Part shown: piece by piece, positions 4,961 through 61,724 of the stretch
How positions within the stretch are numbered: position 1 is the stretch's first letter
Layout: each line of letters begins with the position of its first letter
Assembly (NCBI GenBank): GCA_965197965.1
Contig: OZ240235.1
Span: forward strand, 1,189,820 to 1,253,819
DNA from: Dehalococcoidia bacterium
GTDB lineage: Bacteria > Chloroflexota > Dehalococcoidia > Lucifugimonadales > QGNO01
DNA: 64,000 nucleotides
Direction: 5' to 3'
The notes under the pieces: generated by a model
Databases searched by the model: none
What the model was told of the DNA's origin: nothing
The model's input: only the letters and a program-made list of their open reading frames with translations
Translations under genes and position numbers: made by a program

Positions 4961-4970
4961 GAATCGCCTC

Positions 4971-6296
4971 CTATCCGGGTAGTGTGGCCGGCTCCTCCTC
5001 CGCCACAGCCTTGCGCTGCGGCGGCCTAGCCATGAACAGCAGAATGCCCGATGTGGCGAAGAAGCCCGCCGAGACCATCCACAGCGTCGTATGGGTTACC
5101 CCGGCATCCAAAAGGAACCCATAGACCGGGGGTCCCAATCCGGTCGCCGCCACCTGCACGGGGAACACTATGCCGCGGATGGTGCCCAAAAACCTCCGTC
5201 CAAAGTAGTTGGGCCAGATCAGATTGTTCGCCGTGATATAGGCGCCTCCTCCCGTAGCCCAGATCATGTTGTGGGCAAAGATGGTGTACGTCTGGCCGCT
5301 GGACAGTATCATGGGGATCATGGAAAGAGTGAAGACCAGCCCGCCGAATAGGGCCAGGTTCCGCGTCCTCACCTTCTCTCCAATAACGCCGAATACCACC
5401 ACGGAGAACATGAACGTGAACGGGTCCATCGCCGTGCCGAAAGCCACCAGCGCCGGCGACATGCCCGTCTCCTCCCAGTACGCCACTCTGTGAAGCAGCG
5501 TGCCCGCCAGTGCGAAGCCGCCCACGGCCAGCGCAAACAGTATCAGCCAGGACACGGGGTGCCGCAGCGCCTCCCTGGCTGTCCAGTCGGTCTCGACGAC
5601 CCTCCCCGACCCCAGGCCGGTGACGCCGGGCGATGGCGCGGTCCGCGTACCGTTCAAACCGTCGGGCTGAAGTCCCAGGTCGGAGGGTGCGCCCCGTAGA
5701 AAGAGAAGGCTCAACGGAACGGTGATTACCGCCGCCAGCACGCCCAGGATGGCCCACGCCTCACGCCAGCCTGTGTTTTGGATTATCCACTGCGCCGCCG
5801 GAATGATTAAGACCGTGCCTATCGCCATCCCCGTGGTGGCTATGGACATGGCGCGGCCCCGTTTCCTTACGAACCACTTGGCCACGGGCACCAGGGTGAG
5901 CAGGTTGCCTCCCGGCCCGCCTCCTAGTCCGACGCCGCCTGAGACCGCGAACAGCAGATAGAGCATCCATATCTGGTGTGTGTAGAACAGCCCAATCAAG
6001 CTGCCGCCTGCCACCAGACCGGCGATGAGCCCCAGCCACCGCGGACCAAACCTATCGATTATCACCCCAATGAGCGGCGCGGTGACCCCGCTTACCACCA
6101 GCCGGAACGTTATCGCCAGGGACAGCGCCCCCAGGCTCCAACCCATCTCCTCGCTCATCGGCGCTATGAAGAACGAGAACACCACCGGGTTCAGCGGCGA
6201 CGTGGCCATGTTGATAGCCAGAGCCGTAGCCACAATCACCCAGCCGTAGTAGAGCCGGGAGGGAATGGGAACGGGAACGGTGGGCAGCCTTTGCAT
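4971..6296 (-). CDS. MFS transporter
   Basis: 441 aa, about 12 hydrophobic segments, with a D-R-x-G-R-like loop (IDRFGPRW). Confidence 0.85.
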   Translation of the reverse strand: MQRLPTVPVPIPSRLYYGWVIVATALAINMATSPLNPVVFSFFIAPMSEEMGWSLGALSLAITFRLVVSGVTAPLIGVIIDRFGPRWLGLIAGLVAGGSLIGLFYTHQIWMLYLLFAVSGGVGLGGGPGGNLLTLVPVAKWFVRKRGRAMSIATTGMAIGTVLIIPAAQWIIQNTGWREAWAILGVLAAVITVPLSLLFLRGAPSDLGLQPDGLNGTRTAPSPGVTGLGSGRVVETDWTAREALRHPVSWLILFALAVGGFALAGTLLHRVAYWEETGMSPALVAFGTAMDPFTFMFSVVVFGVIGEKVRTRNLALFGGLVFTLSMIPMILSSGQTYTIFAHNMIWATGGGAYITANNLIWPNYFGRRFLGTIRGIVFPVQVAATGLGPPVYGFLLDAGVTHTTLWMVSAGFFATSGILLFMARPPQRKAVAEEEPATLPG

Positions 6297-6457
6297 AGAG
6301 GACTACATTAGGGCATAGGATAGCTTGAAGCAAGCTGGAGGTGTAGGCGGTACCGAGGCTAGGGCATACGTTGCGCCACATCAACGGATAGACGTAATCG
6401 GACGAGTGCAAAACTCCGCTAGAGCCTGTTAGGGTATGCTCCACAGAGGAGGGATGC

Positions 6458-6940
6458 TTGGAAACAGGTCGCCGCAAGACCGTGTATCTGGCCAATGCCT
6501 ACGGTTTCTCCACCCGGCAGCGCGCCACGGTGCTGCCGGAGCTGGTGACCGCGTTGGAATCCCTGGGGCTGGAGGTCTGGGAGCCTTTCCATCGCAACAA
6601 CCAGGAGGCCGGACTGAAGCCCGGCTGGGCCTACCGTGTCGGCCAGGCCGATGTGCGAGACGTGCGGGAAGCCGATGCCATCTTCGCCGTCGTCAACGGC
6701 GTGCCCCCGGACGAGGGAGTCATGGTGGAACTGGGCATCGCCGTCGCCCTCGGCAAGCCTACGTTCCTTTTCCGGGACGACTTCCGCCGCGCTACGGACT
6801 CAGAGCAATACCCGCTCAACCTCATGCTCTTCACCGGCATGCCGGAGCACGGATGGCAGGACTACTACTACACCTCGCTTGAGGAGATCGCCTCACCGGA
6901 CAAGATGCTGGCCCGCTGGGCCGCCGGCCATCCAACATAA
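6458..6940 (+). CDS. nucleoside 2-deoxyribosyltransferase family protein
   Basis: 160 aa. TTG start 6458 preceded by AGAGGAGGG. VYLANAYGFS...ADAIFAVVNG..PDEGVMVELGIAVALGKP matches the NDT family layout. Confidence 0.8.
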   Translation: METGRRKTVYLANAYGFSTRQRATVLPELVTALESLGLEVWEPFHRNNQEAGLKPGWAYRVGQADVRDVREADAIFAVVNGVPPDEGVMVELGIAVALGKPTFLFRDDFRRATDSEQYPLNLMLFTGMPEHGWQDYYYTSLEEIASPDKMLARWAAGHPT

Positions 6941-7010
6941 GATATGGGAATACGCCTTCTTCCATTTCCTTAGCGCGGGACCTCGGACTGTTACGAGCAT
7001 TACTCTGAGG

Positions 7011-9254
<2,244 letters not shown>

Positions 9255-9299
9255 CTAGTTCTGCCCCTGAAGCCACTCGTCGGTAAACTTCAGAACACT

Positions 9300-9500
9300 A
9301 CGTTTATGACTGCACCGTCTTGCTCGCGCAGGCGGGCATCCAGGGAGCGATGGGGGAGTCTGTCATTCTGAGACGCCCTGCGTCGAAGAATCCAAAGCCT
9401 CTCTCCGCAAAGCCGCGCTGTTTATTCGAACCGCCCACCGTCTTGCCCGCACAGGCGGGCATCCAGGGGCGATGGGATACTTCCAGCCGGCCACCCGTCG
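9300..9500. repeat. intergenic hairpin-repeat mosaic
   Basis: Two copies of CCGTCTTGC.CGC..GCGGGCATCCAGGG (9315-9345, 9438-9469) flank a GTCATTCTGAG...GAAGAATCCAAAGCCTCT..CGCAAAGCCGCG module (9362-9420). The same modules recur at 24.2, 30.1, 33.2 and 35.6 kb. Confidence 0.85.
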
Positions 9501-9503
9501 AGT

Positions 9504-9929
9504 CTACTGCCAAACGGCCAGCAGCACGCCTATGATGGCATACGATATCACCGGATATCCGATGTTGATGAGGAAGATCTTGAGGCCGCGGCCCTCGAAG
9601 CTGTAGGTCGTTGCGTACGACGTCGCGATAAACCCGATAGCTGCCAGCAGACCGAGGATGAGGCCGTCGACAACGCCTTCCGCTCCCATGCCTTGAATCA
9701 CCAGTGCCAGACCCAGGGTGAACACGAGCGCGCTCACAGCCGCCACCACATAGGGATACCACTGCCGTGCAGTCCCCTTCATCGCCTCCAAGTCCTCCAT
9801 CGTCAGGCCGACTCCCGCCATCCACGGCTTCCCCAACGCGCTGTACCACGCCGCGCCAAGCGCCTGGTTGATGATGATCCCCGCGATGATCGCCAGGTAG
9901 TTCAAGCTCCCAAGGTCTATGTTGTCCAT
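9504..9929 (-). CDS. DUF1761-family membrane protein
   Basis: Start at ATG 9929 (GAGGAG upstream). 141 aa with 4 hydrophobic segments. N-terminus MDNIDLGSLNYLAIIAGIIINQALGAAWYS is typical of DUF1761 (from memory). Confidence 0.65.
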   Translation of the reverse strand: MDNIDLGSLNYLAIIAGIIINQALGAAWYSALGKPWMAGVGLTMEDLEAMKGTARQWYPYVVAAVSALVFTLGLALVIQGMGAEGVVDGLILGLLAAIGFIATSYATTYSFEGRGLKIFLINIGYPVISYAIIGVLLAVWQ

Positions 9930-10130
9930 GACTCCTCGATTCTTCGGCTGGCGAAGGTCGGACCGTGTCCGCCTATCGCTCTCCCGGATTTTGGGCGTAT
10001 AGGCTATAGGAAAGAGCACGGGCGTTTCAATACCGTTGATGGGGGTGGACATCACCATCTCTGATTCACTACCCTCCACCCCAAACGACCCCCTACAGCA
10101 AAAGCGGTTCATTCAGAAGGAGGAACAGGC

Positions 10131-10346
10131 ATGAAGCTGCATTACTACCCAGAGACAGACAGCCTGTACGTCGAATTCAAGGCACGCCCCGGGGCGGAGA
10201 CCATCGAGGTCACTGAAGGGCTGAACGTAGACCTAGACGCTGACGGGGAAGTGGTTGGCTTCGACATAGACCAGGCATCCCGTCGCCTGGACCTGGCCAC
10301 GCTGGAAACAGAGGCATTGCCCCTACACAGTATCAGGGCAGGCTGA
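10131..10346 (+). CDS. DUF2283 domain protein
   Basis: 71 aa. MKLHYYPETDSLYVEF...VDLDADGEVVGFDI is the characteristic DUF2283 pattern. Confidence 0.75.
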   Translation: MKLHYYPETDSLYVEFKARPGAETIEVTEGLNVDLDADGEVVGFDIDQASRRLDLATLETEALPLHSIRAG

Positions 10347-14437: not shown

Positions 14438-15274
14438 TCACACCGCCAAGTCAAATGGCAAGTCACTGATGTCGCGTAGTCTCCTGCCGGTCATGAGTAT
14501 GTCTAACAATTCAGCATCTGACTCGTTACCCACAACTGCATCCTTCAATTCCCTCAGCGCAAAATGGTAGATGCAGTCGATATCGCCTGTACCATAGGCC
14601 AGTGACGCTATTCGACCAGGAAGAGGTTCCCCTGTGACTACGACTATATGTGGTGTCTTGCCTTTTCGATTTCGCACCAGGTTCAAGCCCTCGGTGCGTG
14701 CGTTTTGAGAGCGGTCACTACGAATTGTCCACTTGCAAGAGACGCTCGCGTGCAGAATCTTCGCTTCCGAATTCGTGCGTCGCAGCGGGGTATAGCTAGC
14801 AACGGTATCGTTGTTCAAAAGGGATTCGTTCTCGTTGATTTTCGAGTCCGTAACCGGCTCTCGGCAGACAACAATGTCAGGCTTTACGATATAGTCGCCA
14901 AAGATGATCTGTAGCTCCTGATGCTCTTCAACCACTCGTCGCACATCGGACAAGTGTAAATACTGCTCGTAGTCACGGATGTCTCCGCCCATCGAGAATT
15001 CCCACTCGCCAGGGCGTAGATGAGCAAGTAACCCAAATGCGTCGCGTAGAAAGCTCCTTGTGGCCTCTTCGAATTGATGTCCCGCCGTCTGCCCAGCCAA
15101 TCTCTCAGACCCCACCGGAAGCCCAATGTTCTCGACTATGCCTCTGGCAATCCTCGCACTCGATGCACTTCCGCTGTCGGCGTTGTTCGGAATTCCAGAC
15201 GTATTCAGTCTCAATACGTCGTTGGCAATTTGGCGGTGGTAAGCTTGTCGGAGAGCTTCGATCCTGCCGGGCAT
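14438..15274 (-). CDS. type II restriction endonuclease, NgoMIV family
   Basis: 278 aa, collinear with NgoMIV as I remember it: LHASVSCKWTIRSDRSQNARTEGLNLVRNRKGKTPHIVVVTGEP, GTGDIDCIYHFAL, RLRDISDLPFDLAV. Contains the S-x-K catalytic motif. The start shares one nt with the MTase stop (TAATG). Confidence 0.85.
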   Translation of the reverse strand: MPGRIEALRQAYHRQIANDVLRLNTSGIPNNADSGSASSARIARGIVENIGLPVGSERLAGQTAGHQFEEATRSFLRDAFGLLAHLRPGEWEFSMGGDIRDYEQYLHLSDVRRVVEEHQELQIIFGDYIVKPDIVVCREPVTDSKINENESLLNNDTVASYTPLRRTNSEAKILHASVSCKWTIRSDRSQNARTEGLNLVRNRKGKTPHIVVVTGEPLPGRIASLAYGTGDIDCIYHFALRELKDAVVGNESDAELLDILMTGRRLRDISDLPFDLAV

Positions 15275-16650
15275 TACATCTTCACCAATCCGATCACGTA
15301 CTCTTTGTGCATACGCTCTTCAATCTGTGATTGCTGTAGCTGACCCCATCGAGCTGGCATCATACGTTTGTCACGATCCAACAGCCGTGTACCGATTCCC
15401 GCTAGAATGAAGCCGGCATGTTCACCGATGGCGGCGAGTCCCTTGTGTGTCTCTACATCCAGGCCCCTTAATTTCGAGGAACCTACTACTATCACAGCCG
15501 GCCGGCCTACTTTCAATACACGCTGCATCTCACAAATGACAGTCTTCATTTCCTCAAAGTAGCGACGCAATACAAGTGCCTTCTTATCATCGCGATTCGC
15601 CAGCTTGACCAACGTCTCTTCACACTGGCTCGGTAGCCCATCCCTGCGCAAGCCAGCAACCGCGTCGTGGCCTACATACTGCGCACGAATCTGGCTGAGG
15701 TCTGCAATCTTCCAACCAAACCACACCAGCGAAAACTTGTGTGCGCGCATATAGTCAATAGCGTTGTTGGCATAGGGTGGCGACGTCACAATCAGATCAA
15801 CACTCGCGGGCGGCAGGCTGGTGTCTGCCGCACTAGTGGCGTGAATGGATGCGGAGGGGAAGGCTTGCGCCTCATCTCCACCGGCTCCGCCTAAAAGAGT
15901 AGGCGTTGCAAGGCCGATTAAGTCGCGCTTACCGAGAGCCGCTACGTTACGCTCTAAACGCTTGCCAAACTCGATGAAGGCCGATACGGGTGTCTTATTT
16001 GTGTCCCTGTGAGGGCGGGTGTGTGCCAAGTCGCGCGCCAATGATACCCCACCAGACTTGGCAATGATTGTTGATGAGAACACTACCTGAAGGAAGCTGC
16101 GCATTCCTCCTTCTGGTAAAGCTTCAATGTGCTGCACGAGAGCAAGCAGTTCAAGCTGTTGCTGGGGCAGGAACCAATAACTTACGAATTCTCGTGTCTT
16201 CGCGTCGAACCTAAGGTTTAAATCCCTCAGTAGCCTCCAGCGGGATTGGTGATAGTCCTCACTTGCGCCAGCTATGATCTTCTTTCCCTCCCAGAGGGCG
16301 ACGACTGGATCAATGGGAGTCAACTTGGCTGTTGCAATCATTCGTGCCAGCGGATCAATGTCGCAGCCAACGGCTCGGCGTCCGAGCCGTATAGCTTCGA
16401 TGAGCGTAGTTCCGGAACCGAGCATGGGATCTAGAACGAGGTCGCCCGGGTTCGAGAGATGGCGAATCATGAACTCTGGCAACTGGGGCGGAAACTTAGC
16501 TGGGAAGGAGTGCCAAGCGTGAGAGCCGTAGCTGCCGTTCGTACCGTGGAAATCTAAGTTAGCACGCAGTGCTTCACGCGTCGCGTCAAGGCGGCTGCCA
16601 ATGTCATCTACTTGAACGGCGGAGTCGGAGGTGAGGTTCAAAAAGCTCAA
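15274..16650 (-). CDS. site-specific DNA amino-methyltransferase (N4-C/N6-A type)
   Basis: 458 aa. HSFPAKFPPQLP, motif I VLDPMLGSGTTLIEA, motif IV LIVTSPPYANN. Translationally coupled to the endonuclease gene. Confidence 0.85.
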   Translation of the reverse strand: MSFLNLTSDSAVQVDDIGSRLDATREALRANLDFHGTNGSYGSHAWHSFPAKFPPQLPEFMIRHLSNPGDLVLDPMLGSGTTLIEAIRLGRRAVGCDIDPLARMIATAKLTPIDPVVALWEGKKIIAGASEDYHQSRWRLLRDLNLRFDAKTREFVSYWFLPQQQLELLALVQHIEALPEGGMRSFLQVVFSSTIIAKSGGVSLARDLAHTRPHRDTNKTPVSAFIEFGKRLERNVAALGKRDLIGLATPTLLGGAGGDEAQAFPSASIHATSAADTSLPPASVDLIVTSPPYANNAIDYMRAHKFSLVWFGWKIADLSQIRAQYVGHDAVAGLRRDGLPSQCEETLVKLANRDDKKALVLRRYFEEMKTVICEMQRVLKVGRPAVIVVGSSKLRGLDVETHKGLAAIGEHAGFILAGIGTRLLDRDKRMMPARWGQLQQSQIEERMHKEYVIGLVKM

Positions 16651-24643: not shown

Positions 24644-25555
24644 CTACCCCCACCACCGCATGCTCTCACCGTAGGGGCGGGTCTTCTCCTCCGGGCCGGG
24701 CTTGCGGAACACAAACAGGTGCTCGTGCATTATGAGAAGGAAATTCTTATCGCGAGACAGGCGAGTCCACAGGCCCTCCGTCTGGGTATTCCACTGAGCC
24801 TTGACAATGTCCTCTTTGAGGATGAATCCGGCCTCCAGGAACGCCTGCATGACGCGAAACGCTATTGGCGTGTAGTGCTTGTTGCGGCGCGTATCGCCCA
24901 CCAGGATGGCGCAGTAGTGATCGGGCTTCAGCACGCGGAAGCACTCATCCGCCACCAGCCTCATCTGCTCCACAAACTCCGCTATGTCGCGCACCTTGGA
25001 CAGGTCGCCGTTATGCGCCGCTTCCTTGCCCGAATACTTGATGATGTTCGCGTAGGGAGGATGCGTGGCGATGAGGTCGATTGAGTCCGCCTCTATCTTG
25101 TCCAGGCGCCGCGCGTCTCCCTGGTACAGACGTATGTCGACCGGTTCCAGCGGCTCCTCCAGCCTGCCCGAGAAGTTGAGCGCGTCCATGGTCAGCATCA
25201 GCGAGTCGCGGTTGACGTCCACGCCTATGCCGTGGCGGCCCGTCAGCTTGCACTCCACGAGTGTCGTGCCGCCGCCCGCCATCTGGTCGAGCACCGTGTC
25301 CCCGGGCAGCGAGTACCTCTCGATGACGTTGCGAACTATCTGCGGAGCCCAGTTGCCCCGGTAGGCGGCGCGATGCGTGGCCCATCTGCCCCGCTTGGGA
25401 AACGACCACAGCGTGGTGGTCTCCGTCTTGAAATCGTCTGGCTGGAGCTTCTTGGGACGCTGGTGTCCCTTGAGGCGGATCTCGACTTCCCCAGCCGATA
25501 CGGTCTTTTGGCGGGCAAGGAAAGACAGGTAATCGGCTTGTGTAATGAGCCGCAT
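24644..25555 (-). CDS. site-specific DNA amino-methyltransferase (N6-A/N4-C type)
   Basis: 303 aa. LWSFPKRG..ATH..YRGNWAPQI, motif I VLDQMAGGGTTLVE, motif IV IDLIATHPPYANII (unusual His before PPY). Confidence 0.8.
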   Translation of the reverse strand: MRLITQADYLSFLARQKTVSAGEVEIRLKGHQRPKKLQPDDFKTETTTLWSFPKRGRWATHRAAYRGNWAPQIVRNVIERYSLPGDTVLDQMAGGGTTLVECKLTGRHGIGVDVNRDSLMLTMDALNFSGRLEEPLEPVDIRLYQGDARRLDKIEADSIDLIATHPPYANIIKYSGKEAAHNGDLSKVRDIAEFVEQMRLVADECFRVLKPDHYCAILVGDTRRNKHYTPIAFRVMQAFLEAGFILKEDIVKAQWNTQTEGLWTRLSRDKNFLLIMHEHLFVFRKPGPEEKTRPYGESMRWWG

Positions 25556-25556
25556 T

Positions 25557-25619
25557 GATCAGACCGCCAGAGCGATCCGATCTTACGGATCATTTTCAAA
25601 AGATCAAGATCAAATGATC
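25557..25619. promoter_or_regulatory. GATC cluster / inverted-repeat operator-like region upstream of the methyltransferase gene
   Basis: GATC at 25557, 25574, 25579, 25588, 25602, 25608 and 25616. Inverted repeats GATCCG-n6-CGGATC (25574-25591) and AGATCA AGATCA aa TGATCT (25601-25620). Confidence 0.6.
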
Positions 25620-25633
25620 TAACAAACCGCCGA

Positions 25634-26431
25634 CTATCTCAGAACCCTGTAGTGTCCGCCATCCAGGAACTGCAAGACCCCGTTATCACGCAGAACCTGT
25701 AGCTGCTGACGAATCTTGGGCTGGACGTTTCTATTCTCTGGGTGAAGGCCGCCTAGATAACCTTCAAAAGCCTTGTAGAAGCCCTGAAGGACGAACTCAT
25801 CGGAGTTAGTCATCTCTTGCATCTTTCTGACGCACATGAGGATATCCGCAGTCCATCCCCCTTTGGCATTCTCACCCTGGCCAAGAAAAGCGAACCGGCT
25901 CCAAGCGTCGCGTACATCTTGAGACGGCAAAGCTTTTTCATTCTCTACAACTGTGACACGCGCGTCTCCCGGTAGCTCACGCAACAAGATATTGGAGCCT
26001 ACCCATCCGGCACGGCGTGCCCATGGAGGTAAAGGAGGACGTTTTTCAATGATAGCAGGCGTTATGAAGTACCCAGGCACAATGAATAAGTCCATAACCA
26101 CCCATCTCTGTCGAGAGTAGCGAAGGAATATGTAGTTAGGCGCCAGCCCGTCTTGGATGGCTTTCATCTTGGGCCAATAGGCAGAATTGGAGGCTTTCCT
26201 GCCAAAAGTCTTGTCCGCGCTTTTCAGTTGGTAGCTGGCCTTACAGTCCGGGCAATCGTAATCCCTTACTCTTGCGTTTGCCCGCAACTGGTCCAAATGC
26301 TCTGATGGACATGCCGGGCAGAACAGGTTCTCCCTTGCCCAATGTTCGGTAATTACTCGTGCTATCTGCGAATGGCTCTGGTAACCCTCAGCCAAGGACG
26401 GGTCTAAGTTCAGATCCACGTACAACTCCAA
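25634..26431 (-). CDS. DpnI-family (methyl-GATC-directed type IIM/IV) restriction endonuclease homolog
   Basis: 265 aa, collinear with DpnI as I remember it: YQSHSQIARVITEHW, FCPAC, RDYDCPDCKASYQLKS, RRAGWVGSNI, KIRQQLQVLRDNGVLQF (C-terminal winged helix). Confidence 0.85.
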   Translation of the reverse strand: MELYVDLNLDPSLAEGYQSHSQIARVITEHWARENLFCPACPSEHLDQLRANARVRDYDCPDCKASYQLKSADKTFGRKASNSAYWPKMKAIQDGLAPNYIFLRYSRQRWVVMDLFIVPGYFITPAIIEKRPPLPPWARRAGWVGSNILLRELPGDARVTVVENEKALPSQDVRDAWSRFAFLGQGENAKGGWTADILMCVRKMQEMTNSDEFVLQGFYKAFEGYLGGLHPENRNVQPKIRQQLQVLRDNGVLQFLDGGHYRVLR

Positions 26432-39252: not shown

Positions 39253-41334
39253 TCATGGACTCACCGCCTCTTCGCAATCCGGGAGAGGGAGGCTCCCTAG
39301 GTCGTTGTCCTCAATACCCTGCAAGGCTGTTGGGATGCAACCGGTAAATCGATTGCCTATCAATAAAAGCCTCCCCAGGTTTGTGAGGTTATCCAGCTCC
39401 GGCGGAATGCTCCCACTCAAGTAGTTTTCGCTGAGGTCCAGAAACCACAGCTTCGTCAGGCTGCCCAGCTCCGGCGGGATGCTCCCGTTTAGGTAGTTCC
39501 TGCTGAGAACCAGCGTTCTGAGCTCGGCTATCTCCCCCAGCTCAGGCGGAACCGTGCCCGTGAGTCTATCGCGCACGATGCCATGCGAGTCACGGCCTCG
39601 AAGAATCAACCTGTGGACACGGGACGGCTCGCCGCGCAGGGTGACCCCCTCCCACTCTTCCATGGGAGCGCTCTCGCTCCAGTTCAACTCGACACCCCCT
39701 CCAAGCCTGTCCCGGACGCTCAGCAGGACCTCGCAGTCGCGGACCAGGCCAGGATTAGCCTCCGGCTCCGGGACGATGCGGCCCGACGAGCACCCCGCCA
39801 AGTCAACGGGCCTCCCGGACAGCGGCGGGCTCAATGCCTGGAAACGATCCTCCTTATCCAGCCCCATCAGAAAGCGTATGTCCGCCCCGTCGCGGGCTAC
39901 CGTCGCCAGGAGATGTGCCGGATGGTAGATCGCTATCCTGGACCCATCCGGCGACCATGCGGCCCTGGTACTTGGCAAGCCGGGGGCCAAACTCCGCAGG
40001 CCCGTGCCATCCGACCGCACAATATATGCTGTGTTGAGAAGATATGCTGCGCGGTTACGAAATTCTGTGTCAATAAGATCTGCTTGGTCGAAAAGATACG
40101 CTTTACCGGCAATGAAGAGCAGCTCTGACCCATCGGGAGACCAAGACACCTGTGAGACTCGTGAGGGCTCTCGTGAGGACCATACTGTGGGGTCGTTGGG
40201 CTCACCGCGCCAGACCGTGCGTAGGCCTGTGCCATCGGGCCTGACCGCGTAGATTATGGGCGCATCTCCGACAATTGAGGCGAAGGCCAGCTCCTCTCCG
40301 TCCGGGGACCAGGTGGCGGCCGCCGTGGTAGCTCCTATCCGGGTCAACCCTGCTCCATCGGAACCAATGACATAGAGCCCGCCAATGCCGTCGCCAAACT
40401 CTCCCTCATCCGCAATGAACGCCAAGCGCTGACCGTCAGGCGACCAGACCGGGGGGTACAGGGCAACCCAGCTAGTGGTGTCATGCGGTTGCGATGCCGC
40501 CGGTGCATCCGGAGATATTATGACTAGTTTCATATCGTCGTCACCCGGAAAGATTCCATGTACTATGGAGGTGTTTGCAACGATGACGAGCTGTGTCCCA
40601 TCCGGTGACCAGACGGGGTAGTGATCGAAACGCTCGTTGTTCGTCAGTCGCTTCTTATCGGTGCCGTCTATGTTAACCATGGCGATCTCGTAACCCTCAG
40701 AGTACTCGCCGAACGGGCCTGGCTCGTCGGGCATGTATCCACAGGTGGAGTAGACGATCCGAGAGCCGTCCGGCGATACGTCGGCGTAGAACCCGTACTC
40801 GAATCTGTAAGTGCCGCCGTATCCCCCGCTTTCGTGGTAGTCCACATCTGCATCAGCCACTTCTCTCACCTGAGCGCCTGCGATGTCCAACGCCAGGATC
40901 AAATCGTCATGGTCGAACACCAGGTGAGTGCCCCCTCCTGCCCAATGAATGAAATGCTCGTGCAAGTCTATATAATCTCCGTAGATACTAGGGCCGCACG
41001 GCTCGGTCGGGTCCGAGTGTGCAATCAACGTGGGTGTGGGCGTCGGGGTTGGTGTGGGTACCGACGAGGGTGTGGGCGTCGGGGTTGGTGTGGGTACCGA
41101 CGAGGGTGTAGGCGTCAGTGCTGTAGCCGTAGCTCTAGCAGATAAAAGCTGCTGAGCTAGCTGGTCTTGAAGATTCGGCGTGGAGGTCGGTGGCGGTGGC
41201 GGTACGGGCGTAGCCGTCGGGGTTGGTGTAGGCGATGGCGTCGGTTCAGGCATCCCGGTGCAACCGGAAATTGCCGACGCCAGCGCTAGCGCAACCGTTC
41301 CCAGTACCAGCAATTGGGTTGTCTGCTTTATCAT
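39253..41334 (-). CDS. lipoprotein: Pro/Thr linker + TolB-like (PD40) beta-propeller + C-terminal plant-type leucine-rich repeats, copy A
   Basis: 693 aa. Lipobox SAISGC. PTPTPT linker. Repeated WSPDG motifs. C-terminus LTGTVPPELGEIAELRTLVLSRNYLNGSIPPELGSLTKLWFLDLSENYLSGSIPPELDNLTNLGRLLLIGNRFTGCIP. Confidence 0.85.
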   Translation of the reverse strand: MIKQTTQLLVLGTVALALASAISGCTGMPEPTPSPTPTPTATPVPPPPPTSTPNLQDQLAQQLLSARATATALTPTPSSVPTPTPTPTPSSVPTPTPTPTPTLIAHSDPTEPCGPSIYGDYIDLHEHFIHWAGGGTHLVFDHDDLILALDIAGAQVREVADADVDYHESGGYGGTYRFEYGFYADVSPDGSRIVYSTCGYMPDEPGPFGEYSEGYEIAMVNIDGTDKKRLTNNERFDHYPVWSPDGTQLVIVANTSIVHGIFPGDDDMKLVIISPDAPAASQPHDTTSWVALYPPVWSPDGQRLAFIADEGEFGDGIGGLYVIGSDGAGLTRIGATTAAATWSPDGEELAFASIVGDAPIIYAVRPDGTGLRTVWRGEPNDPTVWSSREPSRVSQVSWSPDGSELLFIAGKAYLFDQADLIDTEFRNRAAYLLNTAYIVRSDGTGLRSLAPGLPSTRAAWSPDGSRIAIYHPAHLLATVARDGADIRFLMGLDKEDRFQALSPPLSGRPVDLAGCSSGRIVPEPEANPGLVRDCEVLLSVRDRLGGGVELNWSESAPMEEWEGVTLRGEPSRVHRLILRGRDSHGIVRDRLTGTVPPELGEIAELRTLVLSRNYLNGSIPPELGSLTKLWFLDLSENYLSGSIPPELDNLTNLGRLLLIGNRFTGCIPTALQGIEDNDLGSLPLPDCEEAVSP
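41044..41126. repeat. 36-bp tandem repeat inside the Pro/Thr linker coding region
   Basis: GTGTGGGCGTCGGGGTTGGTGTGGGTACCGACGAGG occurs exactly twice (41044-41079, 41080-41115), plus a partial third. It encodes PSSVPTPTPTPT. Confidence 0.9.
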
Positions 41335-41462: not shown

Positions 41463-43475
41463 TCATGGACTCACCGCCTCTTCGCAATCCGGGAGACTGG
41501 GGCTCCCAAGGTCCTCGTCCTCAATGTTTCGCAAGGCTGTTGGGATGCAACCGGTAAATCGATTGCCCCACAAGTAAAGCCTCCTCAGGTTTGTGAGGTT
41601 ACCCAGCTCCGGCGGGATGCTCCCACTTAAGTAGTTATTAATGAGGACCAGGCTCCTCAGCTTCGTCAAGCTGCCCAGCTCCGGCGGGATGCTCCCGCTC
41701 AAGTAGTTCCAGTCGAGTGCCAGCGCCCTGAGCTCGTCCAGACCCCCCAGATCAGGCGGCAACGTGCCTGTAAGTTTATCGCGCGCTATGCCGCTGCCAT
41801 AGCCTGGAAGAATCAAACTGCGGACACGGGACGGCTCGCCGCCCAGAGTGACCCCTTCCCACTCTTCCATGGGAGCGCTCTCGCTCCAGTCCAACTCGAC
41901 ACCCCCTCCAAGCCTGTCCCGGATGCTCAGCAGGACCTCGCAGTCGTGGACCAGGCCCGGATTGGCCTCCGGCTCCGGGACGACGAGGCCCGCCGAGCAC
42001 GCCGCCAGGTCCACCGGCCTCCCGGACAGCGGCGGGTTCAATGCCTGGAAACGACCCTCCTTACCCAGCCCCATCAGAAAGCGCAGGTCTGTCCCGTCCC
42101 GAGCTACCGTCGCTAGGAGATGTGCCGGATGGTAGACCGCTATCCTCGATCCGTCCGGCGACCATGCCGCCCTGGTACTTGGCAAGCCGGGGGCCAAACT
42201 CCGCAGGCCCGTGCCATCCGACCGCACAATATACGCTGCGTTGAGAAGATTTGCTACGCGGTTAAGAAATCTTGTGTCAAGAAGATCTGCTTTGTCGAAA
42301 AGATACGCTCCGCCTTCAAGAAAGAGCAGCTCTGACCCATCGGGAGACCAGGACACCTGTGAGACTCGTGAGGGCTCTCGTGAGGACCATACTGTGGGGT
42401 CGTTGGGCTCACCGCGCCAGACCGTGCGCCTGCCTGTGCCGTCGGGCCTGACCGCGTAGATTATGGGCGCATCTCCGTCAATCGAGGCAAAGGCCAACTC
42501 CTCGCCGTCCGGGGACCATGTGGCCGCCGCCGTAGTATCTCCTATCCGGGTCAACCCTGCTCCATCGGAACCAATGACATAGAGCCCGTCAACGCCGTCG
42601 CCAAACTCTCCTTCATCCGCGATGAACGCCAAGCGCTGACCGTCAGGAGACCAGACCGGGGGGTACAGGGCAACCCTACCAGTAGAGGAAAGTCGTTGCG
42701 ATGCCTGTGCATCTGCAGATAATATGACTAGTTTTATACCCTCATATGTGTCTGAAACGATGGCGACCTGCGTCCCATCCGGTGACCAGACGGGATAGAG
42801 ATGGAAACGCTGGTTATACGTCAGTCGCTTCTTATCGGTGCCGTCTATATTCATCGTGGCGATCTCGTAACTCTCAAGGTACTGGCTACGTTCTGGCTCG
42901 TTGAGCATGTATTCACAGGTGGAGTAGACGACTTGAGAGCCGTCCGGCGATACGTCGGCGTAGAACCCGTACTCGAATCTGTAAGGGTCAAAGTATGCCC
43001 CGCTTTCCTGGTAGTCCCCATCTGCATCGGCCACTTCTCTCACCTGAGCGCCTGCGATGTCCAGCGCCAGGATTAGATCGTCATGGTCGAACACCAGGTG
43101 TGTGCCCCCTCCTGCCCAATGAATGAAATGCTCGTGCAAGTCTCCATAATTTCCGTAGTACCCGATTTCATGAGGACCACACGGCCCTAGAATCTCTATG
43201 TTGGAGGGCGATGGCGTCGGTGTTGGTGCAGGCGTAGCAGTCTGGGTAGGCGTCGGTGGCGGTACGGGCGTGGGTGTGGAGGTCGGCGTGGGTGGCGGTA
43301 CAGGTGTGGGCGTAGCCGTGGAGGTTGGTGTAGGTGTCAGAGTAGACCCGTCCAACGATGGGGTGACTATCTCATTAGAACATCCGGCCAGAAGCACGGC
43401 AACGAGCATCAGAGCCGGAGCAGGCCAACTTGCGATCGCTCTCAACATTGCTGCCTCCGTTGCTATAGTCAGCAA
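41463..43475 (-). CDS. lipoprotein: Pro/Thr linker + TolB-like beta-propeller + plant-type LRR, copy B (tandem paralog)
   Basis: 670 aa (possible start at ATG 43448). Lipobox LLAGC. Same architecture as copy A, with long stretches of near-identical DNA. Confidence 0.85.
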   Translation of the reverse strand: MLTIATEAAMLRAIASWPAPALMLVAVLLAGCSNEIVTPSLDGSTLTPTPTSTATPTPVPPPTPTSTPTPVPPPTPTQTATPAPTPTPSPSNIEILGPCGPHEIGYYGNYGDLHEHFIHWAGGGTHLVFDHDDLILALDIAGAQVREVADADGDYQESGAYFDPYRFEYGFYADVSPDGSQVVYSTCEYMLNEPERSQYLESYEIATMNIDGTDKKRLTYNQRFHLYPVWSPDGTQVAIVSDTYEGIKLVILSADAQASQRLSSTGRVALYPPVWSPDGQRLAFIADEGEFGDGVDGLYVIGSDGAGLTRIGDTTAAATWSPDGEELAFASIDGDAPIIYAVRPDGTGRRTVWRGEPNDPTVWSSREPSRVSQVSWSPDGSELLFLEGGAYLFDKADLLDTRFLNRVANLLNAAYIVRSDGTGLRSLAPGLPSTRAAWSPDGSRIAVYHPAHLLATVARDGTDLRFLMGLGKEGRFQALNPPLSGRPVDLAACSAGLVVPEPEANPGLVHDCEVLLSIRDRLGGGVELDWSESAPMEEWEGVTLGGEPSRVRSLILPGYGSGIARDKLTGTLPPDLGGLDELRALALDWNYLSGSIPPELGSLTKLRSLVLINNYLSGSIPPELGNLTNLRRLYLWGNRFTGCIPTALRNIEDEDLGSPSLPDCEEAVSP

Positions 43476-50364: not shown

Positions 50365-50740
50365 CGATCTGCTTTGCCCTGGACCAGCGTTCTTCCAACC
50401 GGTAATACTCCCGTTCCTGGGGGGCAAAGAGATGGGCGATAACATCCCCAAAATCCAACAGGAGCCATCCTGAGTCCAGCCCGCCTTCACGGTGATGCAG
50501 CGCACTCCCCGACTGCTTCAACTGCTGCGCCACGTCCTGGGCCAGCGCTTCCATCTGGCGGCGGCTCTCCGCAGTCAGTATTACAAAGAAGTCCGCAAAG
50601 CTGCTCAACTCACGGATATCCAGCAACAGGATGTCCGATGCCTGCTTCTCTTCCGCTACTTCTACTATCTTGTGCGCTACTTCCAGGGGTTCCAGGCGTT
50701 GCTCCTTATTTGTAGACACCCCAATTATAGGAACACGCAT
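50351..50740 (-). CDS. rsfS: ribosome silencing factor
   Basis: 129 aa. [55 protein letters not shown]. The 3' end overlaps ndk by 14 nt. Confidence 0.9.
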
Positions 50741-50827
50741 ACGTTCCGGTCAATTTTAACGGAGCATCCTCAGCCGGATGCCCAGCAAAGCAGGCTACCG
50801 GCGCCGTATGCTATCCTTATAGCTGAT

Positions 50828-51922
50828 ATGTCTACTGCCAAGCCCCGTGTGGTCGTCGCCATGAGCGGCGGCGTCGATTCCTCCGTTGCGGCCCTCCTCC
50901 TCAAGGAGCAGGGCTACGACGTAGTGGGCGTTACCATGCGCCTGTTCCCCTATGATGAGGACAACGCCCTCACCCAGTACAACAAGGGGTGCTGCACCCC
51001 GCAGGACGTGGAAGACGCCCGGCGCGTCTGCCAGATCATCGGCGCTCCCCACTACCTGATGAACTTCGAGCGCGAGTTCCAGCAGTTCGTCATCGACTAT
51101 TTCTGTGACGAATACGCCCGTGGACGCACCCCGCACCCCTGCCTTGCCTGCAACGATAAGATCAAGTTCTCCTTCCTCTTCCAGCGCGCCATTGCCCTGG
51201 ACGCCGGATACGTCGCCACCGGCCATTATGCCCGTGTCCATGAACAAGACGGCGCATACCGGCTTCTCAAAGGCATAGATCAGGCCAAGGACCAGTCCTA
51301 CGTCCTCTTCACGCTGCGCCAGGAGGAGCTGCGACGCACTCTGCTGCCCGTGGGCTGGTACACCAAGCCGCAGATCCGCGACTTTGCTCTTAACGCCGAC
51401 CTGCCCGTGGCCGGCAAGCCTGACAGCCAAGAGATATGCTTCATCCCGGACGGCGATTACCGCTCCTTTATCAAAGAGCGCGTTGTTCCCTCTCCCGGCG
51501 AAATTGTGGACACGGAAGGCAACGTTCTTGGCTGGCATAACGGTGTCCAAGACTTTACCGTCGGGCAGCGCCGCGGCCTGGGAATCACCGCGGGCAAGCC
51601 CCTGTTTGTTCTCGGCATAGACGCCCAGCGGCATCGAGTGATTGTTGGCGAAGCGAAAGACCTGCTCAGCCATGCTCTGCAGGCTTCACAGGTCAGCTTC
51701 ACAGGCGGCGCTCCTTCAGGCCCTGTCCAAGTCGACGCCAAGATTCGCTACAAGGCTTCCGAGGCGCCTGCCGTCCTCTACCCCAGCGGTGACTCCGCTG
51801 TCATTCGCTTCCAAACCCCTCAGCGCGCCGTCACGCCCGGCCAGGCCGTCGCCTTCTACCGCCAAGACGAGCTCATCGGCGGCGGCATCATTGAAGGCCC
51901 CCTCTTGGATTCGCTGGCGTAA
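50828..51922 (+). CDS. mnmA: tRNA 2-thiouridine(34) synthase
   Basis: ATG 50828. VVVAMSGGVDSSVAA PP-loop, GCC.PQD, CN..IKF, DQSY.L. The track ORF start 50492 is antisense to rsfS. Confidence 0.95.
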   Translation: MSTAKPRVVVAMSGGVDSSVAALLLKEQGYDVVGVTMRLFPYDEDNALTQYNKGCCTPQDVEDARRVCQIIGAPHYLMNFEREFQQFVIDYFCDEYARGRTPHPCLACNDKIKFSFLFQRAIALDAGYVATGHYARVHEQDGAYRLLKGIDQAKDQSYVLFTLRQEELRRTLLPVGWYTKPQIRDFALNADLPVAGKPDSQEICFIPDGDYRSFIKERVVPSPGEIVDTEGNVLGWHNGVQDFTVGQRRGLGITAGKPLFVLGIDAQRHRVIVGEAKDLLSHALQASQVSFTGGAPSGPVQVDAKIRYKASEAPAVLYPSGDSAVIRFQTPQRAVTPGQAVAFYRQDELIGGGIIEGPLLDSLA

Positions 51923-51971: not shown

Positions 51972-52021
51972 GTAAGCAACCTACACTATTCCCATGTCCC
52001 CGGAGCACTGGGGCTTCTCCC

Positions 52022-52417
52022 CTATTGGACTGACGGATTGCCCGATATGGCCGCGAATGTCTGGTCAAAGGTCTTGATGTCTCGAACCCCACGCCTTCTG
52101 CAACTGGCTAGGTGGCAGAGGTCCCGGGCCTGTAGCGCGGGATATTGCTCGTGGAGTTGACGGGCCAGAGCCACGTCCGCCTCATCCAACGGCCAAACCT
52201 CAACTCCGGCGCTTGCCATCAAACCTAGCGTCGCATCCAAGGTTTGCAGTCTTCCGGTGGGTAAATAAGCATGGGCCAGTTCCTGCATTACCTCTGCTGA
52301 AGTACACAGCGGCATCCCACTCCGATTGGCTTCGATGAAGAAGTCCTGGGCGTATGTCCGGAGTGCGTGAGGGCGTCCCACCGCGTACATGAACACGTTG
52401 GTGTCAACGAATATCAC
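52022..52417 (-). CDS. vapC: PIN-domain toxin (VapC family)
   Basis: 131 aa. MIFVDTNVFMY with acidic PIN residues. 4-nt overlap with the upstream antitoxin gene. Confidence 0.8.
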   Translation of the reverse strand: MIFVDTNVFMYAVGRPHALRTYAQDFFIEANRSGMPLCTSAEVMQELAHAYLPTGRLQTLDATLGLMASAGVEVWPLDEADVALARQLHEQYPALQARDLCHLASCRRRGVRDIKTFDQTFAAISGNPSVQ

Positions 52418-52689
52418 GTGCCCGTCACTCCTGCCCCGCGGGACTTGTTCATAACGCGCAGGTGCTCATCCCAATCCGGTTCCGTCTCCGGACCATCCAG
52501 CGCTGCGCAAGTCCGGAAGAACTCCTTTACCTCATCCGGGGACTCGAACACCTTGACGCGCTGGCGTGCTTCAAGGCGCTCTCGGGCGGCTGCACGCAAC
52601 CACGCGCTGAGGGACATGCCCTCCTGCCGGGCCTGGTGAACGAAGCGGTCTCGGTCTGCATCCGGCATCACCAACTGCACTCTGGCCAT
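52414..52689 (-). CDS. VapB-type antitoxin candidate
   Basis: 91 aa, upstream of and overlapping vapC. ...RDRFVHQARQEGMSLSAWLRAAARERLE is RHH-like. Confidence 0.6.
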   Translation of the reverse strand: MARVQLVMPDADRDRFVHQARQEGMSLSAWLRAAARERLEARQRVKVFESPDEVKEFFRTCAALDGPETEPDWDEHLRVMNKSRGAGVTGT

Positions 52690-52781
52690 ATCTACCTCCA
52701 GATGACCTACGGTGAGTGTGTAACATCGTTACACATACGCTTTTCGAAGTCAAGCGACTGTACGAGCCTACTACTGCCCTT

Positions 52782-52818
52782 TTGCCCGCTTGCATTTTTG
52801 CCTGTTTGCCCGTCTGCC
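52782..52818 (+). repeat. 37-bp TTGCCCG-rich repeat, right of vapBC
   Basis: TTGCCCGCTTGCATTTTTGCCTGTTTGCCCGTCTGCC. Confidence 0.85.
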
Positions 52819-52869
52819 CCGACATTTCCACCTTGTAACCCCAACTCGCCATCGTGTATCGTCTCATCC

Positions 52870-53871
52870 ATGAAGCCGACCTGGTTAGAAGAGAACCTCC
52901 TCATCCAGAAAGGCTACTCGCTCATTGCCGGAGTTGACGAAGTGGGACGCGGCCCCCTGGCCGGCCCAGTCGCCGCTGCCGCCGTCATCCTGGACCCCGG
53001 TGCTGACCATGACTGGTATGAAGACCTGGACGATAGCAAAGTCGTTCCTCCCCGCAAGAGGCAGCAACTGGCCAAGCTGATCCATGCGCATGCCAGCGCC
53101 GTCAACGTCGCCTTCGTTGAGTCGCAGGAAATCGATGCCTTCGGCATTGTCCCCGCTACCAAAACGTCCATGGCTCGCGCCATCGCCGGGCTCAAGGTCA
53201 AACCCGACCACGTCCTCATCGATGCCGTTCCGCTGCCTGAGATCAGCATCCCCTTCCGCGCCGTGATAAAGGGCGACGCTCTCTGCCGCTCCATAGCCGC
53301 CGCATCCATTGTGGCCAAGGTCGCCAGAGACCGCCGCATGAGGCAGGAGCACCGCATTCATCCCGCCTACGGCTTTTCCAGGCACAAGGGATACGCCTCA
53401 CCCGAGCATCTGAAGAAGCTCGATGAGCTTGGCCCCTGCTCCATCCACCGCCGATCATTTGCTCCTATTCGCAATCTTCTCCAGCCTCCCGCCGACGTAT
53501 CTGCCAGCACTCGCTCCCGTGGCCGCGCCGCCGAAGCCGCAACTGCCGTCTTCCTGGAATCGCGGGGGTATCGCGTACTGGAGCGCAGTTTCACCTGCCG
53601 CTGGGGAGAAATCGATCTCATAGCTCAGCACGGCGAAACCATCGCCTTCGTAGAGGTCAAGTCCCGTCGCAATAGCTCCATGGGTACTCCGTTCGAATCC
53701 ATAACGCGGAAAAAGCAGCGCAGTCTCGTACTTTCGGCACAGGAGTTCATTCAACAGCGCAGCTTGGAGAATGCGGCGTGGAGAATCGACGTTGTCTCGG
53801 CGCGCTTGAAAACCTCCAACGATGGCGCTTATTCCTTCGAGCACTTGGAGAATGCCGTCATGGGCTTTTGA
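52870..53871 (+). CDS. rnhB: ribonuclease HII fused to a YraN-family (UPF0102) endonuclease domain
   Basis: ATG 52870. RNase HII motifs IAGVDEVGRGPLAGPV, DDSK, SIAAASIVAKV. The C-terminal ~120 aa GRAAEAATAVFLESRGYRVLERSFTCRWGEIDLIAQHGETIAFVEVKSR matches YraN. One continuous frame. Confidence 0.85.
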   Translation: MKPTWLEENLLIQKGYSLIAGVDEVGRGPLAGPVAAAAVILDPGADHDWYEDLDDSKVVPPRKRQQLAKLIHAHASAVNVAFVESQEIDAFGIVPATKTSMARAIAGLKVKPDHVLIDAVPLPEISIPFRAVIKGDALCRSIAAASIVAKVARDRRMRQEHRIHPAYGFSRHKGYASPEHLKKLDELGPCSIHRRSFAPIRNLLQPPADVSASTRSRGRAAEAATAVFLESRGYRVLERSFTCRWGEIDLIAQHGETIAFVEVKSRRNSSMGTPFESITRKKQRSLVLSAQEFIQQRSLENAAWRIDVVSARLKTSNDGAYSFEHLENAVMGF

Positions 53872-56906: not shown

Positions 56907-57217
56907 GAAACGCCGTTCAGTCCTCCCTACGAAACTACGACGCAGCAGGATTGACAGACGTCTTCTTCTCTGGTTTCCTCGCTTTTCTTTCACCTATTCC
57001 TCAACTGCAGACCACTATACCTACGATTATACCAGAGCCTTGTCTGCCTAGCCGTCTTCAGATTCTGCTTCCACTCACCTTGAGTATATGTTGCAGGCTG
57101 AGCGGGCCGCATTCCACACGCCACTGATCTAGTCGGATACATGCCGTACATGCGTACAGCCCCTTGTCAAATGAAACCAACCGATGGTAGCCTGCGAATC
57201 ACGGAGGTGATGAAGCC

Positions 57218-57490
57218 ATGGTCATGGACGGTAAGACCCATCTGGAGATAAAGTACTGCTCACCCTGAGGGTACTTCCCCCAGGCCTCTTGGATAGGGGC
57301 CGAATTCAATCGCCAATTTGGCGGCAATGTGGCAATCACCCTGACGCCGGTAGGTGAGGGAAGGCTAGAGGTCTACGTAGACGGCGACCTCATCTTTGAC
57401 AGAAAAGCAATCGGCCACTACCCCAGTATGCCCGACGTGACTCAGATGAAGCTGACCGCCCAAGAGAAGTCGCCCGCCTTGAGCGAATAG
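57218..57490 (+). CDS. SelW/Rdx-family selenoprotein (CxxU) with in-frame UGA at 57266-57268
   Basis: Absent from the ORF track. GGAGG 57203-57207, ATG 57218, TGA 57266, TAG 57488. Translation MVMDGKTHLEIKYCSPUGYFPQASWIGAEFNRQFGGNVAITLTPVGEGRLEVYVDGDLIFDRKAIGHYPSMPDVTQM... fits the Rdx fold pattern, with UGA at the second redox position. Confidence 0.75.
57283..57301 (+). other. candidate bacterial SECIS hairpin
   Basis: GGCCUC-UUGGAUA-GGGGCC (6 bp including one G.U; 7-nt loop with GG), starting 15 nt after the UGA. Small, and folded by eye only. Confidence 0.35.
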
Positions 57491-60137: not shown

Positions 60138-60533
60138 AAGCCTCTTACCTCACAGTTGAACTCCGCTCTCTACATATCTGCGGCAAGCGGGCAGGACCGG
60201 CACATGTTGTTTTTATCACGCTTTGCTAGTTACCGACAAGGCATGGACGGGCAGACGTCAAAAAGCTGCTGTTAGAACTAGTGCCGCCATCATTGCCTAG
60301 CGTCCCGATTCCGTGAGATGAACGTCTCCAAGCTGGCCTCCTACGACATTGTAGTTAGCGGAGCGGCGGGGCTTTTCAACATCGTAGTTTGCTGATTATC
60401 GGAGTGGGGATGTACAAGGGTTAGAGAGTTCGCCTCGGAGAACGCTTCCGGCCAGAACCGGGCGAATCCCCAGCAAATACCGTTCCCCGCAGAGTCAACG
60501 CTGTGGACGGTGGCGTCGCCCTTCGCGCCGCGT

Positions 60534-61724
60534 TCACCAACTGTGGGACTCTTCTGCGTAGACGTGGTCGGGCAATGTATAGCGAATTCCTTCCTCGTCG
60601 AATAACGAAGTATCGAGCAGGGACGTGAACCTAGTGAAGTTGCTGTCTTGGCGACGTCCCCGAAACAGCTTGCTCAGGACGTTGCCGTAGCGTTGCTGCA
60701 TCCTGAACCACCAGACGGCTCCAAAGGAGGAGATTGGCGGATACATCAGTGAATCGGAGAACTCTCTTCCGATAAGTCCGCGGGAGAGCTTGTACACGTA
60801 CTTGGCCAGATTGCGTCGCTCCTCCGGCCCGGTCATCCCGGCAATCAACGGAGCTGAGTTGACCAGGGAGTGCGCCATAACGATCGACTCCAGTGGGGGA
60901 TCAGGCTCGCACATGAGGGCTATCTCCCACAGTCTCAGTGCTTCATCGGCATCACGGAAAAGGATGGTTTCAGGAATGCCCATCAAGTAACCGCTGTAGC
61001 GCCAAACGGCCATGAAGCTATTGTACTCTTCGTCAGTGTAATCAGCCCCCAGGGTTTTCATGTGCTTCAGCAGCCGTGCCGAGAAAGCGGAAATGGCGTA
61101 ACCCAAGTGCGCAGCGCTGATCGGCGTACCCCAAGCTTCGGTATCCCAGTCCTCCGATCCGTTCAGGAGGAGTCTTAACCGTGCGTGAACTATCCTGATG
61201 CGAACCGAAAGCTTCCAGCCGTCTCCATACCTATACAGGCCGCCAGGAAGGAATATCTCCATCATGTGACGGTTATTTTGTCCCAAACGCCTGACGCCCT
61301 GGTCGCGCACCCGCCCGGTGATGAAGAAGGACTTTGCTATGTTGGTTGTAAAGCCTTCTACCAGAACGCCTGCGACGAATGCTGCCAGGGTAACCTGCGA
61401 GTTTCTGAAAAACATGCGGACAGCCGGGGCGAATGCTGAATAGTCGAGCCACTCCGGCTGAGTTTCCGCTTCTTTGAAGAATTTTCGCAGCGAGTCCGGC
61501 GCGTTCCTTAGAGCCTCCTCACCTTCCTCATTCATAGTCGCTTGGATGAGCTTCGCTGACTCTTTTGGACTAAATTCCGCGAGGTCTTCTGCCAACTCTT
61601 CGGCCAATGGGTCTCCAATGAGTGTGTGCGCAAGGTACTTGTCCGCTATATCTGGTGCAATGGCGCGCGCCTTTTCATAGCCTGGACTGTAGTCAGTCGG
61701 GATGATCATTCCTTCTACGCTCAT
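60534..61724 (-). CDS. oxygenase MpaB family (DUF2236) protein
   Basis: 396 aa. ...VRIRIVHARLRLLL..., W.TEAWGTPISAAHLGYA resemble DUF2236 (from memory). Confidence 0.65.
   Translation of the reverse strand: MSVEGMIIPTDYSPGYEKARAIAPDIADKYLAHTLIGDPLAEELAEDLAEFSPKESAKLIQATMNEEGEEALRNAPDSLRKFFKEAETQPEWLDYSAFAPAVRMFFRNSQVTLAAFVAGVLVEGFTTNIAKSFFITGRVRDQGVRRLGQNNRHMMEIFLPGGLYRYGDGWKLSVRIRIVHARLRLLLNGSEDWDTEAWGTPISAAHLGYAISAFSARLLKHMKTLGADYTDEEYNSFMAVWRYSGYLMGIPETILFRDADEALRLWEIALMCEPDPPLESIVMAHSLVNSAPLIAGMTGPEERRNLAKYVYKLSRGLIGREFSDSLMYPPISSFGAVWWFRMQQRYGNVLSKLFRGRRQDSNFTRFTSLLDTSLFDEEGIRYTLPDHVYAEESHSW

Follow-up and report, generated by a model that had tools for sequence, protein, structure and literature searches.

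The window analysed here, a stretch of 64,000 nt from a Dehalococcoidia bacterium, very probably contains a functional gene for a SelW-like (Rdx) selenoprotein of about 90 residues, in which an in-frame UGA is read as selenocysteine (Sec). The comparative data reveal a conserved Rdx gene under selection, whose second redox residue comes from a site-specifically decoded UGA and which has, downstream of this codon, a hairpin specific to the Sec forms. Standard gene callers miss the gene because the in-frame TGA encodes selenocysteine. A preliminary description of the locus had proposed such a hidden selenoprotein gene, with a CxxU motif encoded through the TGA, and the evidence from family membership, selection and the hairpin supports it.

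On re-reading, the positions of the GGAGG, the ATG, the TGA and the TAG, as well as the length of 90 codons, were all exactly as first given (Table 1). Translation of the frame yields MVMDGKTHLEIKYCSP, then the TGA, then GYFPQASWIGAEFNRQFGGNVAITLTPVGEGRLEVYVDGDLIFDRKAIGHYPSMPDVTQMKLTAQEKSPALSE; the segment after the TGA begins with GYFPQASWIGAEF, and the C-terminal end reads GHYPSMPDVTQMKLTAQEKSPALSE. The ATG at 57224, which aligns with the start of the related gene L002, could be an alternative start; L002 has AGGAGG 6 nt upstream of its own ATG. A block upstream of the Rdx gene, kept in L001, L003 and L004, could, to judge from its sequence, be an extended -10 promoter of this gene; a consensus scan of the + strand called neither a sigma-70 promoter nor a terminator, this block included. 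The initial statement that no + strand ORF is listed in this region holds for the full frame and fails for a 53-aa + strand ORF, from GTG 57329 to 57490, which appears in the ORF list at a lowered length threshold.

Table 1. Features of the Rdx locus, numbered from the first nucleotide of the window
Feature	Positions	Strand	Description
Candidate promoter	57164-57193	+	TTGTCA (57164-57169), 18-nt spacer, TGgTAGCCT extended -10-like (57185-57193); read from sequence
Ribosome-binding site GGAGG	57203-57207	+	Kept in L001, L003, L004
Rdx gene frame	57218-57490	+	90 sense codons, one internal TGA
CDS part 1	57218-57265	+	16 codons, MVMDGKTHLEIKYCSP; beta1 and first redox Cys, C14
In-frame TGA, proposed selenocysteine codon U17	57266-57268	+	Second position of the CxxU motif
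CDS part 2	57269-57487	+	73 codons, remainder of the Rdx thioredoxin-like domain
Bacterial SECIS-type hairpin	57283-57301	+	Stem 57283-57289 / 57295-57301, loop UGGAU 57290-57294
Stop codon TAG	57488-57490	+	Common to all close relatives

With Cys put in place of the TGA, the product scores 54.3 bits against the Pfam profile Rdx (PF10262; curated cut-off 22.6) and 44.7 bits against TIGR02174 (CXXU_selWTH, covering SelT/SelW/SelH; cut-off 34.2). The Rdx match covers profile positions 2-70 and spans the TGA, and the 73 residues after the TGA match Rdx alone at 33 bits. The Rdx (SelW/SelT/SelH-like) identity first assigned by eye is therefore borne out by two curated cut-offs, far above chance. 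The cut-off of the Campylobacter-type equivalog NF041051 (SelTWH_Campy) was not reached (57.7 versus 88 bits), and the product is related to this subfamily without being a member. Sequence matches in the PDB comprise 2fa8, 2p0g, 2obk, 3dex, 2ojl and 2oka. Their CxxC, like that of the relatives, aligns with the CSPU of the window's product, which places the TGA at the second position of the CxxC/CxxU redox motif, as had been claimed.

The structure was modelled with AlphaFold for the L002 product, which is 74% identical to that of the window, using a 102-sequence alignment. The model (pLDDT 93) shows the topology beta1 / CxxU loop / alpha1 / beta2-beta3-beta4 / alpha2, that is, the thioredoxin-like beta-alpha-beta-beta-beta-alpha fold of the Rdx family, with the redox motif between E5-12 and H18-35. 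C14-S-P-U17 follows beta1 near the N-terminus, as is characteristic of the Rdx CxxC/CxxU motif. The model superimposes on SelW-related crystal structures with TM scores of 0.78-0.82 and an rmsd of 1.4-1.5 Å, and on mouse SelW (2npb) with a TM score of 0.76; thioredoxins come next, with TM scores of about 0.5. The bacterial SelW-related structures 2fa8 (Atu0228), 2obk, 2p0g, 2oka, 2ojl and 3dex thus resemble the model closely (TM of about 0.8), whereas the crystallized proteins differ from the window's product in having CxxC instead of CxxU, in their sequence identity of 23-29% and in the absence of a SECIS. Mammalian selenoprotein W (2npb) and MIEN1 (2ljk) share the Rdx fold and a CxxU/CxxC motif in the beta1-alpha1 loop (TM 0.76 and 0.65, respectively), but their sequence identity to the window's product is only about 20%.

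Related DNA was collected from metagenome assemblies (L001-L004, L014, L015, L018 and L019-L028) and from six Dehalococcoidia MAGs (L005-L010), three of them closed chromosomes; the JGI metagenome collection, scanned with an unbiased TGH pattern, gave no match. All 24 related Sec-type sequences, with amino acid identities of 39-100%, share the TGA at this codon, and 23 of them keep an open frame as far as the normal stop, the exception being L001. The TGA is thus fixed in a set that draws on many samples and covers no fewer than four divergent lineages. For the codons that follow it, omega amounts to 0.03-0.15, at dS values of 0.2-0.56. At codon positions 1, 2 and 3, the variable sites number 4, 4 and 11 in the 14 upstream codons and 3, 2 and 12 in the 20 codons from the TGA to GTG 57329, and the variation beyond this GTG is likewise codon-periodic. 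No in-frame ATG, GTG or TTG occurs within these 20 codons, which vary by codon position and are, therefore, translated in frame, so that the TGA must be read. Additionally, 10 further contigs encode a 100% identical protein and show 1-9 nt differences, all synonymous and located on both sides of the TGA. These substitution patterns indicate purifying selection before as well as after the TGA, and also on the 20 codons that precede GTG 57329; a conserved in-frame UGA with coding conservation on either side is what is expected of a selenoprotein gene. The preliminary description had regarded a frame not conserved downstream of the TGA as grounds for rejecting the gene; the low omega and the codon-periodic substitutions document its conservation there.

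The hairpin noted shortly after the UGA is present, with a stem one pair longer in the RNAfold prediction than originally drawn: a 7-bp stem (GGCCUCU/AGGGGCC) closed by the 5-nt loop UGGAU, with a free energy of -12.3 kcal/mol. The stem starts 14 nt and the apical loop 21 nt after the UGA. The bSECIS model specifies an apical loop of 3-9 nt on a stem of 4-16 bp, a G in the first two loop positions, a UGA-to-loop distance of 16-37 nt and a minimum free energy of -7.5 kcal/mol or lower (PMC13188914), and the hairpin lies within all four limits (loop of 5 nt and stem of 7 bp, UGGAU, 21 nt and -12.3 kcal/mol). It bears no sequence similarity to the E. coli fdhF-type SECIS elements, and no Rfam family matched. 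The SECIS of eukaryotes is located in the 3' UTR and has an architecture other than the bacterial one (PMC1088965).

Taken alone, the hairpin folds no better than chance relative to shuffles of this G+C-rich sequence (z = -1.1; 29 of 200 fold as well), and its significance derives from the comparison of related sequences. The 20-nt block CAGGCCTCTTGGATAGGGGC is invariant across the 11 sequences of the first set, and only one of seven third-codon positions within the hairpin is variable, versus 68 of 80 elsewhere (Fisher p = 2e-4). In a 10-sequence alignment, 95.7% of the cells are paired, compared with 33-59% when the 3' arm is slid, and RNAalifold independently gives the same helix. Two-sided changes affect three of the seven stem pairs, with a covariation score reached by none of 500 shuffles, this covariation going back to some four substitution events, which fall in two divergent lineages. 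They comprise U.G to G-C in L014/L015 and, in L018, C-G to A-U, U.G to G-U and U-A to C-G; some of them stem from non-synonymous substitutions. The conservation of the loop is not independent evidence for an RNA element, because UGGAU is also held by a Trp codon conserved family-wide. Cys forms pair at 1-5 of the seven stem positions. One of them, L016 (58% identical), keeps the peptide QASWIG, yet only three of its seven stem positions are paired, and among its changes are some (ATA to ATT, GGG to GGT) at just those synonymous sites where the Sec forms are frozen. The suggestion of a plausible bacterial SECIS position has thus gained from the fit to the published model, from covariation and from the absence of the helix in the Cys forms.

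An exhaustive search of 1.8 billion representative proteins retrieved 133 short relatives, which we sorted by their redox motif: 57 have CxxC, 39 CxxW and 3 CxxG, while 23 are truncated just past the motif and 11 fall into other categories. In all three lineages checked, the W of CxxW corresponds to a TGA in the DNA, translated under an alternative genetic code. Archaeal homologues (EIKYCVPCGH and EIKYCVPCKY) have Cys at the TGA column, and the closest Cys forms, with 58% and 51% identity, read EIKYCAVCGYFA and EITYCVPCGYFA. Cys is aligned to the UGA in L011-L013, L016, L017 and the 57 CxxC representatives, as expected for a selenoprotein gene. In public gene calls, the Sec-TGA is rendered as Trp or Gly (L002, 252-518; L014, 371-667; L015, 215-511; L018, 66-326), apparently by callers that resort to code 4 or 25 when contigs are short. 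The calls for L014 and L015 also read through the true TGA stop, which adds a false tail (…TIDG-U-YQINLAL). The public records of the clade consist either of a nameless 53-aa fragment (NCBI, ENA and Logan) or of a product with Trp in place of Sec.

Sec machinery was sought in the window and in the surroundings of the relatives. ARAGORN found no tRNA-Sec in the 64-kb window, Rfam at gathering thresholds no RNA family, and a Pfam scan of 40 window ORFs no SelA, SelB or SelD; the 20-kb flanks of the relatives contain no selA, selB, selD or tRNA-Sec. A scan of the window for TGA-interrupted ORFs with a nearby Cys returned 32 matches, including the Rdx frame, and no second selenoprotein gene. Most of these matches lie within or antisense to real genes, and two intergenic candidates, at 60318-60605 and 51994-52338, have translations that look non-coding. 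Sec use is documented in the class: Dehalogenimonas alkenigignens encodes selC, a Sec-specific elongation factor (selB), Sec-synthesis genes and Sec-containing SelD and FdhA (PMC4918011), and two Dehalococcoidia MAGs, with 46-49 genes each, belong to the top ten of BSepDB by size of the bacterial selenoproteome (PMC13326102). The syntenic neighbours of the Rdx gene, a divergent DUF502 gene and a convergent permease of the xanthine/uracil family, offer no functional clue; one Cys-form relative is located in a different context, with RmuC and TauE.

Several other genes of the window deserve mention. Two restriction-modification-like gene pairs are located at 14438-16650 (-) and 24644-26431 (-); in one, an NgoMIV-family endonuclease adjoins an N6/N4 DNA methylase, and in the other, a DpnI-family (methyl-directed) endonuclease adjoins a second N6/N4 methylase. 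Two tandem paralogues of about 680 aa, at 39253-41334 (-) and 41463-43475 (-), carry WD40-like PD40 beta-propeller repeats and, at the C-terminus, leucine-rich repeats. At 7011-9233 (-), a haem peroxidase of 740 aa with two domains, of the KatG-type catalase-peroxidase class by its Pfam architecture, suggests that the lineage can deal with oxygen or peroxide, in contrast to those organohalide respirers that are strict anaerobes. The ORF at 52462-53871 (+) encodes a fusion of RNase HII with a UPF0102 (YraN-like) domain; the start of this 469-aa ORF is probably placed too far upstream, since relatives call a 333-aa product. The same is probably true of the MnmA ORF at 50492-51922, which has about 118 residues ahead of its first domain.

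It is exceedingly improbable that the locus is a pseudogene, that is, a former CxxC Rdx gene killed by a TGC/TGT-to-TGA nonsense mutation. Cys-form homologues at 51-58% identity, the additional frameshift in L001 and the lack of Sec machinery in the window and the relatives' flanks would fit such a history, but a TGA shared by all 24 sequences, which come from many samples and represent four or more divergent lineages, would not, nor would a downstream omega of 0.03-0.15 and a frame intact to the shared TAG in 23 of the 24. The Cys forms are, moreover, separate lineages, so that the decayed CxxC gene envisaged as a refutation in the preliminary description does not account for the locus. As for L001, its Rdx gene is frameshifted by one extra G in a G-run, and on the same contig (ERZ25069688 contig_13, about 3600-10160) MnmA, ThiE, a 218-aa gene and DUF502 (twice) are also frameshifted relative to the window. 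Frameshifts thus affect four of nine neighbouring genes in L001, none in L005 and only one in L010, which has the distinctive residues of L001, yet an intact Rdx frame. Because four of the nine conserved neighbours are frameshifted too, the break in the Rdx gene is attributed to an assembly error; L001 looks like an indel-ridden long-read assembly, whose broken genes should not be taken for pseudogenes, and the pseudogene reading of its Rdx gene was rejected. The selection data effectively refute the pseudogene reading. We give scarcely any credence, either, to the idea that translation is confined to the 53-aa ORF from GTG 57329, with the upstream part as an untranslated leader, even though NCBI, ENA and Logan record the clade by this fragment. 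Variation in the 20 codons that separate the TGA from the GTG is almost exclusively at third positions, as it is in the 14 upstream codons, and the match to the Rdx profile (positions 2-70) extends across the TGA. Furthermore, GTG 57329, the start chosen by gene callers, is CTG in L005 and L009, and the annotated fragment therefore lacks a conserved start codon; of the protein, it also leaves out beta1, the redox motif and the greater part of alpha1.

Read-through of the UGA without Sec, either by genome-wide reassignment (code 4 or 25) or by hairpin-promoted near-cognate decoding as Trp or Cys, would explain why the source gene callers gave W or G at this codon in relatives and would agree with the lack of Sec machinery in the window. 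We consider it very unlikely. TGA is the terminator of 8 of the 21 Pfam-supported genes of the window, so that its recoding is site-specific and not a genome-wide reassignment; homologues have, at the aligned position, the catalytic Cys and neither Trp nor Gly; loop size, loop G, spacing and energy of the hairpin all agree with the SelB-type bSECIS model; and Sec use is on record for Dehalococcoidia (PMC4918011, PMC13326102). There is a very slim chance that the lineage lacks canonical SelA, SelB, SelD and tRNA-Sec altogether and that the hairpin promotes UGA decoding in some other way, by Cys or Trp insertion or through a non-canonical factor, or, in a milder version, that a conserved peptide already in place served as the base on which the bSECIS was built. 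Of the apical loop (UGG AU), the first three bases are the invariant Trp codon and the last two those next to it; Cys forms keep or nearly keep this loop, and only the arms are specific to the Sec forms. If the bSECIS did arise in this way, it would suggest an easy path from Cys to Sec in Rdx proteins.

For the favoured selenoprotein gene, translation would start at ATG 57218 (or 57224), and at UGA 57266 the ribosome would insert selenocysteine instead of terminating. The hairpin inside the CDS would act as a bacterial SECIS that recruits SelB-GTP-Sec-tRNA(Sec); we infer both the recruitment of SelB and the actual insertion of Sec by analogy with established bacterial Sec decoding. The predicted product has a thioredoxin fold, in which C14-S-P-U17 occupies the loop that connects strand beta1 to helix alpha1. 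C14 and U17 presumably cycle between the selenolate/thiol and a reversible selenenylsulfide, as would suit a thiol-dependent oxidoreductase.

SelW-like CxxU proteins have been catalogued as a bacterial selenoprotein family since 2004-2005 (PMC1088965, PMC1794560). In the Sargasso Sea survey, their 48 genes made them more numerous than any other selenoprotein family (PMC1088965), and they are recorded across phyla (PMC1794560). Like the gene in the window, these bacterial selenoproteins have the same domain above cut-offs, a CxxU motif with Sec in second place, a length of about 75-100 aa and a SECIS hairpin just past the UGA within the CDS, and their Sec and Cys forms coexist. The window's Dehalococcoidia clade is only 30-58% identical to other representatives, and its product stays below the NF041051 cut-off. 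The gene is, thus, a genuine but ordinary SelW-like selenoprotein gene, belonging to a group of orthologues that has gone unannotated in its uncultured Dehalococcoidia lineage. Since the family has been catalogued for two decades, this addition will not surprise a specialist, and the known picture of Sec decoding and Rdx proteins is unchanged by it.

The main value of the finding lies in annotation, as databases lack the redox-active half of the protein for this clade. About half of the family's short representatives in the library of 1.8 billion proteins carry an artefact, be it CxxW, CxxG or truncation. With the correct call, this uncultured lineage of Dehalococcoidia, which is widespread and occurs in many samples, gains a selenoprotein, and this implies that it requires selenium.
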